From Escherichia coli (GTDB lineage: Bacteria > Pseudomonadota > Gammaproteobacteria > Enterobacterales > Enterobacteriaceae), in assembly GCF_003334255.1 (NCBI RefSeq), contig NZ_QOWU01000010.1: DNA of 64,000 bases; one strand, 5' to 3'. The notes under the pieces were generated by a model. That model did not search any database and was not told where the DNA came from. It saw only the letters and a list, made by a program, of their open reading frames with translations. The position numbers and the translations under genes were made by a program. Positions 43,333-46,048 of this stretch are shown here, one piece after another; within the stretch, counting starts at the first letter, position 1; each line of letters starts with the position of its first letter.

Positions 43333-43604
43333 AAAAGGTCCATAAAATAATTAATACCAAAGGGGTAGGTATTATTAGTGATGATAAAATTTCACCAAAA
43401 GTGAACGCTTGTGTTATTACAATAATAAGAATGCACTGATGGCAAATATTCAGGGATGAAAAACTGCTCTGAAAAGAGTAACGCGCTTTACTATCCCTGA
43501 CAATCACCAACAACATCGAACAAGATAATAAATTCCTGGTTTAATATCCGACAAGTGAAAACATGCACCCGGACGGGCAGCATGTCGCTCCACAAGTGCA
43601 GAGC

Positions 43605-43730
43605 TTACTTGTGTTGTACCGAAGCACTCTGTTCAGGTGGCTGATAGTTGTCAATGTGACTCGCCACGCCAAGAAGAATGACTGAAACGACAAGAACGAT
43701 CCAACCTGTTAATTCAATAAGACGATTCAT
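43605..43730 (-). CDS. blr: Blr, small divisome-associated membrane protein, 41 aa
   Basis: MNRLIELTGWIVLVVSVILLGVASHIDNYQPPEQSASVQHK; the 66-aa ORF in the track is an upstream extension. Confidence 0.8.
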   Translation of the reverse strand: MNRLIELTGWIVLVVSVILLGVASHIDNYQPPEQSASVQHK

Positions 43731-43972
43731 TACAGCCCACATCTCTCTTGATTGATCCATTAACTTCAGGGGGTAAATGTTACTTAGCAATAATAGCTCC
43801 AGCAAGATTTTTACTGAGGTTTTTGCGATATTTAGCTTTTGTCGTTGGAAAATTCGCTATTTTTTTGACTTAAGTTAAACAACATCCCTTATTGCTGGCA
43901 GGTTATTAAACTGTTGAGCGTGGGTAAAGGATAGTGTCAAATAGCCATCATACTTCAATGAGAGGCAATGAC

Positions 43973-45013
43973 ATGAGCGACAACATCCGTGTTGGGTTGA
44001 TTGGGTATGGTTATGCGAGCAAAACCTTCCATGCGCCCCTGATTGCGGGCACGCCCGGGCTGGAACTGGCGGTAATCTCCAGCAGTGATGAAACAAAAGT
44101 AAAAGCCGACTGGCCAACGGTTACGGTTGTCTCTGAGCCGAAGCATCTGTTTAACGATCCCAACATAGACCTGATTGTCATTCCTACACCCAACGATACC
44201 CATTTCCCGTTAGCCAAAGCGGCGCTTGAGGCGGGTAAACATGTGGTCGTTGATAAACCCTTTACCGTGACACTGTCACAAGCGCGAGAGCTGGATGCGC
44301 TGGCAAAAAGCCTGGGGCGTGTGCTGTCTGTATTCCATAACCGTCGCTGGGATAGCGATTTCTTGACGCTAAAAGGTTTACTCGCGGAAGGCGTGCTGGG
44401 TGAAGTTGCTTACTTTGAGTCTCATTTTGACCGCTTCCGTCCGCAGGTGCGCGATCGTTGGCGTGAACAGGGCGGCCCAGGCAGCGGTATCTGGTACGAT
44501 TTAGCACCACATCTTCTTGATCAGGCCATTACGCTTTTTGGTTTACCGGTCAGCATGACGGTAGATTTGGCACAGTTACGGCCCGGAGCGCAGTCGACCG
44601 ATTATTTCCACGCCATCTTGTCCTATCCACAGCGGCGAGTCATTTTACACGGTACCATGCTGGCAGCCGCTGAGTCAGCACGGTATATCGTGCATGGATC
44701 CCTAGGCAGTTATGTGAAATATGGCCTCGATCCACAGGAAGAACGTCTGAAAAATGGCGAGCGTCTACCGCAGGAAGACTGGGGCTACGATATGCGTGAT
44801 GGCGTACTTACCCGCGTGGAAGGTGAGGAACGTGTCGAAGAAACGCTGTTGACGGTGCCTGGGAATTATCCGGCTTACTATGCGGCTATTCGTGATGCGT
44901 TAAATGGCGATGGTGAAAATCCGGTTCCGGCAAGCCAGGCAATCCAGGTAATGGAGTTGATTGAGCTGGGCATCGAATCCGCCAAACATCGCGCGACTTT
45001 GTGCCTTGCATGA
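43973..45013 (+). CDS. ydgJ: YdgJ, Gfo/Idh/MocA-family NAD(P)-dependent oxidoreductase, 346 aa
   Basis: N-terminal Rossmann fold (RVGLIGYGYASKTFHAPLI); start set at MSDNIRVG. Confidence 0.9.
   Translation: MSDNIRVGLIGYGYASKTFHAPLIAGTPGLELAVISSSDETKVKADWPTVTVVSEPKHLFNDPNIDLIVIPTPNDTHFPLAKAALEAGKHVVVDKPFTVTLSQARELDALAKSLGRVLSVFHNRRWDSDFLTLKGLLAEGVLGEVAYFESHFDRFRPQVRDRWREQGGPGSGIWYDLAPHLLDQAITLFGLPVSMTVDLAQLRPGAQSTDYFHAILSYPQRRVILHGTMLAAAESARYIVHGSLGSYVKYGLDPQEERLKNGERLPQEDWGYDMRDGVLTRVEGEERVEETLLTVPGNYPAYYAAIRDALNGDGENPVPASQAIQVMELIELGIESAKHRATLCLA
44267..44279. other. matS-consensus site (GTGACACTGTCAC) for MatP, inside ydgJ
   Basis: Exact match to GTGACRNYGTCAC read directly in the sequence. 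Confidence 0.6.
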
Positions 45014-45046
45014 AAAATGGATGGTGCATTTGCACCATCCATTTTG

Positions 45047-46048
45047 TTACTTCGCGGCGACTTTTTCTCGCAGTGCGCGTTTTTCCTCAGCGCTGAGGAA
45101 AGCCATTTCCAGACCATTAATCTGTGCCTGGCGGATTTGCTCGCGGGATAACCCAGCAGCTGGCGCGGCAACGGTATATTCGTGAATGATATCCACTCCC
45201 TGTACGCCGGGATCGTCAGTGTTAATGCTGGCACGAATGCCATGCTCAAGGAACGTTTTCAGCGGATGTGCAGCCAGCTCTGCTACGGTGCTGGTCTGAA
45301 TATTGGAGGTCAGACAGGATTCAATACCAATTTGTTGCTCGGCGAGAAAATCCATCAGCGCCCGATCTTCAATGGCTTTTACGCCATGTCCAATACGCTC
45401 CGCACCCAGTTCACGAATCGCCTGCCAGATGCTTTCCGGCCCGGCAGCTTCGCCTGCATGGACGGTAATATGCCAGCCCGCATCACGCGCGCGGTTGAAG
45501 TGAGAAAGGAACAGACTTCCCGGGAAACCAAGTTCATCACCGGCTAAATCAAGTGCGGTAATCTGGTCACGGTGGGCTAAAAAGGCCTCCAGCTCTTGCT
45601 GACAGGCGGCTTCGCCGAAGGTCCGGCTCATAATGCCGATAAGCTTCGCCTGCACACCAAAGGTGCGGCAACCTTCACGTACGCCATCGATCACCGCTTC
45701 GACAACACCCGCTACAGGCAGCTGATGTGCCATTGCCATGTAGCCTGGTGAAAAACGCAGCTCGACATAGTGCAGGCCGTGACGGGCTGCATCTTCAATG
45801 TTTTCAAATGCCACGCGGCGACAGGCATCAAGAGAGGCGAGAACTTTAACGCCCCAGTCAAGTTTGGTCAGAAAGCTCACCAGATCGGGTTCGTTGGCAA
45901 TGACCTGAACGTGGGGAATCAGTGTTTCCAGGGATTGTGCAGGAAGCGAGATATTATACTGGCGGCCAAGTTCAAGAATGGTCTGGGGACGAATGTTGCC
46001 ATCAAGGTGGCGATGGATATCAGTTAATGGCAGGGTGGTATCAATCAT
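45047..46048 (-). CDS. add: Adenosine deaminase, 333 aa
   Basis: [31 protein letters not shown]... (metal-dependent hydrolase HxH motif). Confidence 0.96.

Follow-up and report, generated by a model that had tools for sequence, protein, structure and literature searches.

The stretch of DNA analysed here (64,000 nucleotides in full length, hereafter the window) is Escherichia coli Ter DNA and corresponds roughly to MG1655 1,684,281-1,748,300, reversed. The gene ydgJ is carried on its plus strand and at 1,703,268-1,704,308 on the minus strand of MG1655, so the window runs opposite to the MG1655 numbering. This coding sequence is labelled ydgJ by RefSeq in essentially all E. coli genomes; the program-made open reading frame begins at a GTG at 43934, 13 codons 5' of the annotated ATG at 43973. 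Two Pfam domains are present in the product (PF01408 at residues 5-122 and PF02894 at residues 134-344).

Within ydgJ, the bases at window 44267-44279 read GTGACACTGTCAC, a 13-bp near-palindrome that is a perfect match to the matS consensus GTGACRNYGTCAC (Table 1). The site is in frame with the gene, covering V99-T100-L101-S102 plus the first base of Q103, and the residues that it encodes lie near the end of the NAD-binding Rossmann domain of YdgJ, just after the DKP motif.

Table 1. Coordinates of the features discussed, in window numbering
Feature	Position	Strand	Basis or remark
matS site GTGACACTGTCAC	44267..44279	.	exact consensus; predicted MatP-dimer binding site; MG1655 1,704,002-1,704,014
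matS site GTGACAGTGTCAC in ydhQ	3045..3057	.	exact consensus; MG1655 1,745,151-1,745,163
ydgJ coding sequence, 346 aa, Gfo/Idh/MocA-family oxidoreductase	43973..45013	+	open reading frame and RefSeq annotation
ydgJ codons 99-103, GTG ACA CTG TCA CAA = V T L S Q	44267..44281	+	synonymous positions constrained by overlapping matS
Two-mismatch candidate GTAACAATGGCAC	2277		within window 1515-37840
Two-mismatch candidate GTGCCATTGCCAC	2307		within window 1515-37840
Two-mismatch candidate TTGACGATTTCAC	19339		within window 1515-37840
Two-mismatch candidate GTGACCCTGTAAC	26352		within window 1515-37840
Two-mismatch candidate GTGACGTTGGCAT	34618		within window 1515-37840

By pattern search, exactly two exact matches to GTGACRNYGTCAC were found in the window, at 3045-3057 and 44267-44279. 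An earlier note on this DNA had described the second as a perfect match about 41 kb from the first, and their measured spacing is 41,222 bp. Simple arithmetic assuming uniform composition gives a chance expectation of about 0.015 matches per 64 kb, and no exact match was seen in any of 100 windows produced by dinucleotide-preserving shuffles. When two mismatches were tolerated, the window contained 9 sites against 7.4 expected, which is the background level, so the signal resides in the exact matches. The two sites belong to one array of MatP sites. A Tus-binding Ter site was also sought in the window, and only partial matches at chance level were found. The same pair of sites is 41,149 bp apart in MG1655; this difference in spacing indicates that the strain behind the window is not K-12 and has small indels between the sites.

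Position in the terminus region and catalogue identity

The ydgJ site lies 113 kb from dif (1,590,750), in the terminus region that bears both dif and the matS array. MG1655 positions 1,100,001-1,950,000 were scanned for exact and one-mismatch occurrences of GTGACRNYGTCAC, which yielded 20 exact consensus sites and 15 one-mismatch sites; about 0.2 exact occurrences would be expected in 850 kb. The outermost exact sites fall at 1,136,538 and 1,916,864, in agreement with the 1135-1914 kb published, in older coordinates, as the interval that carries matS (PMC3140498), and the ydgJ site is the 16th of the 20. A Ter density of roughly one site per 35 kb had been claimed, and this was borne out by the exact sites (one per 39 kb) and by the figure of 23 per 800 kb given in the literature (PMC3330122). 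The host genome encodes MatP: matP lies outside the window, at MG1655 1,018,485-1,018,937, and every one of the 5,426 complete E. coli genomes was found to carry it.

Because the usable published data consist of one oligonucleotide and a set of transposition breakpoints, the catalogue number of the ydgJ site was obtained by counting. The 19-nt context of the site at 3045 (MG1655 1,745,151) is identical to the oligonucleotide AAAGTGACACTGTCACCTT, named 'matS19' of Mercier 2008 (PMC6538776). Since this neighbour is matS19 and MG1655 has neither an exact nor a one-mismatch site between 1,704,002 and 1,745,151, the ydgJ site should be matS18 of the 23 in that catalogue. In Seba et al. 2024, 28 ChIP-seq matS are split 13/15 by a breakpoint at 1,596,000 and 19/9 by a breakpoint at 1,710,441 (PMC10945525). 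Six ChIP-seq matS are thereby implied between these two positions, the same number as the four exact sites (1,600,472; 1,619,966; 1,630,324; 1,704,002) and two one-mismatch sites (1,665,175 and 1,679,136, both GTTAC) found there. As the interval counts agree, the ydgJ site would be matS19 of 28 in the numbering of Seba 2024. The counting approach is supported by the spacings of matS25-27 in the same study, 13 and 65 kb (PMC10945525), which fit the sites at 1,838,826, 1,851,199, and 1,916,864. The site in ydgJ is thus probably the one numbered matS18 by Mercier 2008 and matS19 by Seba 2024.

Counting against the published ChIP-seq numbers also suggests that the ydgJ site is occupied by MatP. 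In Nolivos et al. 2016, the 26 strongest MatP ChIP-seq peaks included 21 of the catalogued matS; matS5 showed no enrichment, so a consensus match does not guarantee occupancy (PMC4738335).

Conservation of the site within E. coli and across genera

Conservation within the species was determined by using a 43-nt query with the 13-mer centred, for which every 28-nt megablast seed word must include the whole 13-mer. This query matched 5,419 of 5,426 genomes, 924 of them with mismatches in the flanks. At least 5,419 of the 5,426 E. coli genomes (99.9% or more) thus carry the 13-mer unaltered, and the adjoining bases vary. In a divergent allele from strain GN05652, 9 differences were counted in 243 nt, of which 8 were synonymous and none fell in the site; the closest was a GCG to GCA change in codon 104. 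The comparison of 13-mer conservation with synonymous drift across E. coli ydgJ, proposed in the earlier note, thus showed an invariant 13-mer between flanking codons that vary.

A 2-kb region around the site (window 43500-45500), annotated blr-ydgJ-add, was matched in 5,425 of 5,426 complete E. coli genomes. Strain ES3 keeps only 26% of this region, the match in strain J6 is broken into two pieces with an IS1 element annotated under it, and in one E. coli genome the record that holds the region is classified as plasmid. About five E. coli genomes have ydgJ and lack a match to the 43-mer; these may carry natural matS variants.

For the comparison across species, GTDB species representatives were scanned and 80 ydgJ orthologues with 84-99% amino-acid identity were collected, so that 81 sequences from 22 genera were compared. 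Gene order was largely maintained: of the 80 loci, 79 have ydgK upstream and 77 have add. The median nucleotide identity to the window was 77.5%, and the median identity at third positions 49%. Recent horizontal transfer was excluded as the source of the conservation, given third positions that are only about 49% identical and retained ydgK-ydgJ-add synteny.

The consensus was retained in 70 of the 81 sequences (44 with GTGACACTGTCAC, 25 with GTGACGTTGTCAC, and 1 with GTGACATTGTCAC), and among these 70 only the degenerate R and N positions varied. The peptide FTVTLSQA was invariant save for one L-to-P change. Codons on either side of the site vary freely, with F encoded by TTT or TTC, T by ACC, ACT, ACG or ACA, Q by CAA or CAG, and A by all four GCN codons. 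When the same degeneracy mask was applied to all 1,023 13-mer windows of ydgJ, the matS window ranked first, with 86% conservation; the median window reached 4%, and the 99th percentile lay at 49%.

Third-position changes were counted by Fitch parsimony on a neighbour-joining tree made without codons 99-102, with 161 comparable third-position columns. The third positions of codons 99-102 required 4, 9 (only 1 of them a transversion), 2, and 7 changes, respectively, against a column median of 21, and ranked 3, 11, 1, and 6 among the 161 columns. In 100,000 draws of random column triples, none summed to 13 or fewer. The serine codon TCA was found at codon 102 in 88% of sequences, compared with a share of 5.4% among Ser codons in the rest of these genes, and its retention was the highest among all rare-codon columns. 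Codon bias could account for part of the conservation of GTG and CTG, which are preferred codons; the conservation of TCA and ACR cannot be explained in this way. The site DNA is under purifying selection that is independent of the protein sequence and goes beyond coding need, as the conservation, the parsimony counts, and the TCA codon all show. The constraint on codon choice in ydgJ that had been claimed from one sequence is thus upheld in 22 genera, among which synonymous positions outside the site approach saturation.

The consensus was lost about seven times, in 11 sequences that belong mostly to Enterobacter and Lelliottia. In these sequences the peptide is still VTLS (VTPS in one), and two or three additional synonymous changes are present in several of them. 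Since the peptide is unchanged where the site has been lost, the enzyme does not need these particular codons, and since the losses number about seven independent events among 81 sequences, the site is dispensable in some lineages. No replacement matS was found in the flanks of about 3 kb in the 11 site-losing species. The orthologous flanks, 552 kb in all, contain a single further consensus site. It is GTGACAGTGTCAC in Yokenella regensburgei (locus L018, 4090-4102), about 46 nt past the ydgJ stop codon, and is carried besides the intragenic matS.

The taxonomic labels of a few records (L051, L010, and L071) did not fit their ydgJ genes. They include a contig labelled Chryseobacterium sp. 18061 that carries an enterobacterial ydgJ (88% at the amino-acid level) with an intact matS, probably reflecting contamination or mislabelling, and an 'uncultured Raoultella' MAG with a Citrobacter-like ydgJ allele (94%).

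Competing explanations and proposed role

A sequence of this form could also be conserved as RNA, as an mRNA hairpin with a 5-bp stem and 3-nt loop (GUGAC-ACU-GUCAC) that affects translation or stability of ydgJ. The hairpin is drawn in the minimum-free-energy fold, and the variation seen falls in loop positions with the stem arms conserved. The 61-nt region nevertheless gave a z of +0.96, with 175 of 200 shuffles folding at least as well. A stem would tolerate a change from TCA to TCG through a U-G wobble, and TCG is the commoner codon gene-wide (16% vs 9%), yet it occurred in only 4 of the 81 sequences, three of which had other breaks. Likewise, a free loop would permit the common ACC, but a purine was kept in 80 of 81 sequences with one transversion step, and among the 81 no compensatory stem changes were seen. 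Neither a stability above background nor covariation or wobble tolerance, as a structured mRNA element would display, was therefore found, and we consider a role as a hairpin very unlikely.

It is less probable still that the site is a chance palindrome in coding sequence, unbound and under no selection as DNA. A conserved peptide can by itself yield a palindrome, and FTVTLSQA is nearly invariant; moreover, the catalogued matS5 is without ChIP-seq enrichment. Given VTLS and gene-wide codon usage, however, the chance of matS-compatible codons is 0.95%, and against this expectation of about 1% the compatible codons are kept in 70 of 81 species, with neighbouring synonymous sites varying freely. 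The low expectation for the window and the absence of the motif from all 100 shuffles argue in the same direction. That the palindrome instead serves some other DNA-binding protein, or is held by a DNA-level constraint unrelated to MatP, is a formal possibility only (many dimeric regulators bind short palindromes) and equally improbable, because the allowed variation (R at 6, any base at 7, G at 9) is precisely that of the matS consensus, both variants GTGACACTGTCAC and GTGACGTTGTCAC recur elsewhere in the E. coli Ter array, and the exact motif is so strongly over-represented in Ter.

The site in ydgJ is thus very probably a functional matS, one of the approximately 23-28 sites for MatP by which the E. 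coli Ter macrodomain is defined. It is an already known and ordinary matS, and the synonymous constraint is a confirmation of this and not a new kind of element. From the conserved consensus in Ter we infer, with the backing of the catalogue counting, that MatP is bound at this coordinate.

In ter, MatP bound to matS drives MukBEF out of the region (PMC4738335), and MatP has been described as a sequence-specific MukBEF unloader (PMC8669397). Inhibition of MukBEF is graded with matS number and density (PMC10945525), and MatP further acts to delay ter segregation, with ZapB as an interaction partner (PMC7394560). Solved structures are available of MatP-matS and MukBEF-MatP-matS complexes (4d8j, 3vea/3veb, and 7nyw). 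According to the literature, the 13-bp palindrome is recognised by a MatP dimer, and MatP on matS displaces or unloads the SMC complex MukBEF from the terminus region; through ZapB it also ties Ter to the divisome, so that segregation of the sister termini is delayed until division. Because matS overlaps ydgJ codons 99-103, upkeep of MatP binding would force GTG, ACR, YTG, and TCA on VTLS, a peptide that the enzyme presumably requires anyway.

As matS is the means by which MatP marks the terminus, excludes MukBEF, and holds sister termini at mid-cell until division, the catalogued status of the ydgJ site adds nothing new on the MatP/matS system. A further proposal, that selection acts on the individual matS position and not only on regional density, is in our judgement evenly balanced; it draws on the same four codons being kept across at least 22 genera, on the rare codon that is forced, on the fast decay once the site is broken, and on the lack of a replacement within 3 kb. 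If it were true for other intragenic matS, synonymous conservation would reveal the sites important to Ter organisation and to the exclusion of MukBEF. As the comparative result shows, the codon preference of an unrelated enzyme gene can be overridden over long evolutionary times by a signal of chromosome architecture; the same result suggests a cheap ranking of individual matS by selective importance. No report of per-site codon constraint by matS was returned by a shallow and unspecific literature search. Retention of one site at the same codons, against codon preference and in at least 22 genera, may be under-reported, and is not surprising to specialists.

Related systems and other matS-like sites

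Like matS, the KOPS sites of FtsK and the parS sites of ParB are short words for segregation proteins that often lie in coding sequences, in tension with codon choice. KOPS differ from matS in being polar, non-palindromic 8-mers that are distributed genome-wide with a strand skew. The parS sites, unlike matS, are origin-proximal and serve to load SMC, whereas the matS side unloads it.

The closest comparison is with the other E. coli Ter matS sites (Mercier et al. 2008 Cell 135:475; Seba et al. 2024, PMC10945525), with which the ydgJ site shares its sequence, region, neighbour spacing, and MatP-encoding host, and from which it differs in nothing of kind. What is added here to the E. coli matS catalogue is a quantitative account of the positional conservation of one site, at four ydgJ codons in at least 22 enterobacterial genera. 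The XDS sites of Bacillus subtilis, which are bound by XerD (Karaboja et al. 2021, cited in PMC10945525), are likewise short, terminus-proximal, present in multiple copies, and sites of site-specific SMC unloading. They differ from matS in that the binder is XerD and not MatP, the complex Smc-ScpAB and not MukBEF, the motif unrelated, and the phylum a different one.

Two sites with GTTAC in place of GTGAC, GTTACAGTGTCAC and GTTACACCGTCAC (MG1655 1,665,175 and 1,679,136, respectively), lie just outside the window. They are needed for the published ChIP-seq totals, so that GTGACRNYGTCAC alone misses some real matS (20 exact sites, compared with the 23-28 reported).

Window positions 1515-37840 correspond to MG1655 1,710,441-1,746,766, an interval in which the numbering of Seba 2024 implies two ChIP-seq sites (matS20 and matS21). 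Of sites with at most one mismatch, this interval holds just the one at 3045. Since two are implied and one was found, a weak non-consensus MatP site should lie in this part of the window, and the five two-mismatch candidates for it are those listed in Table 1.
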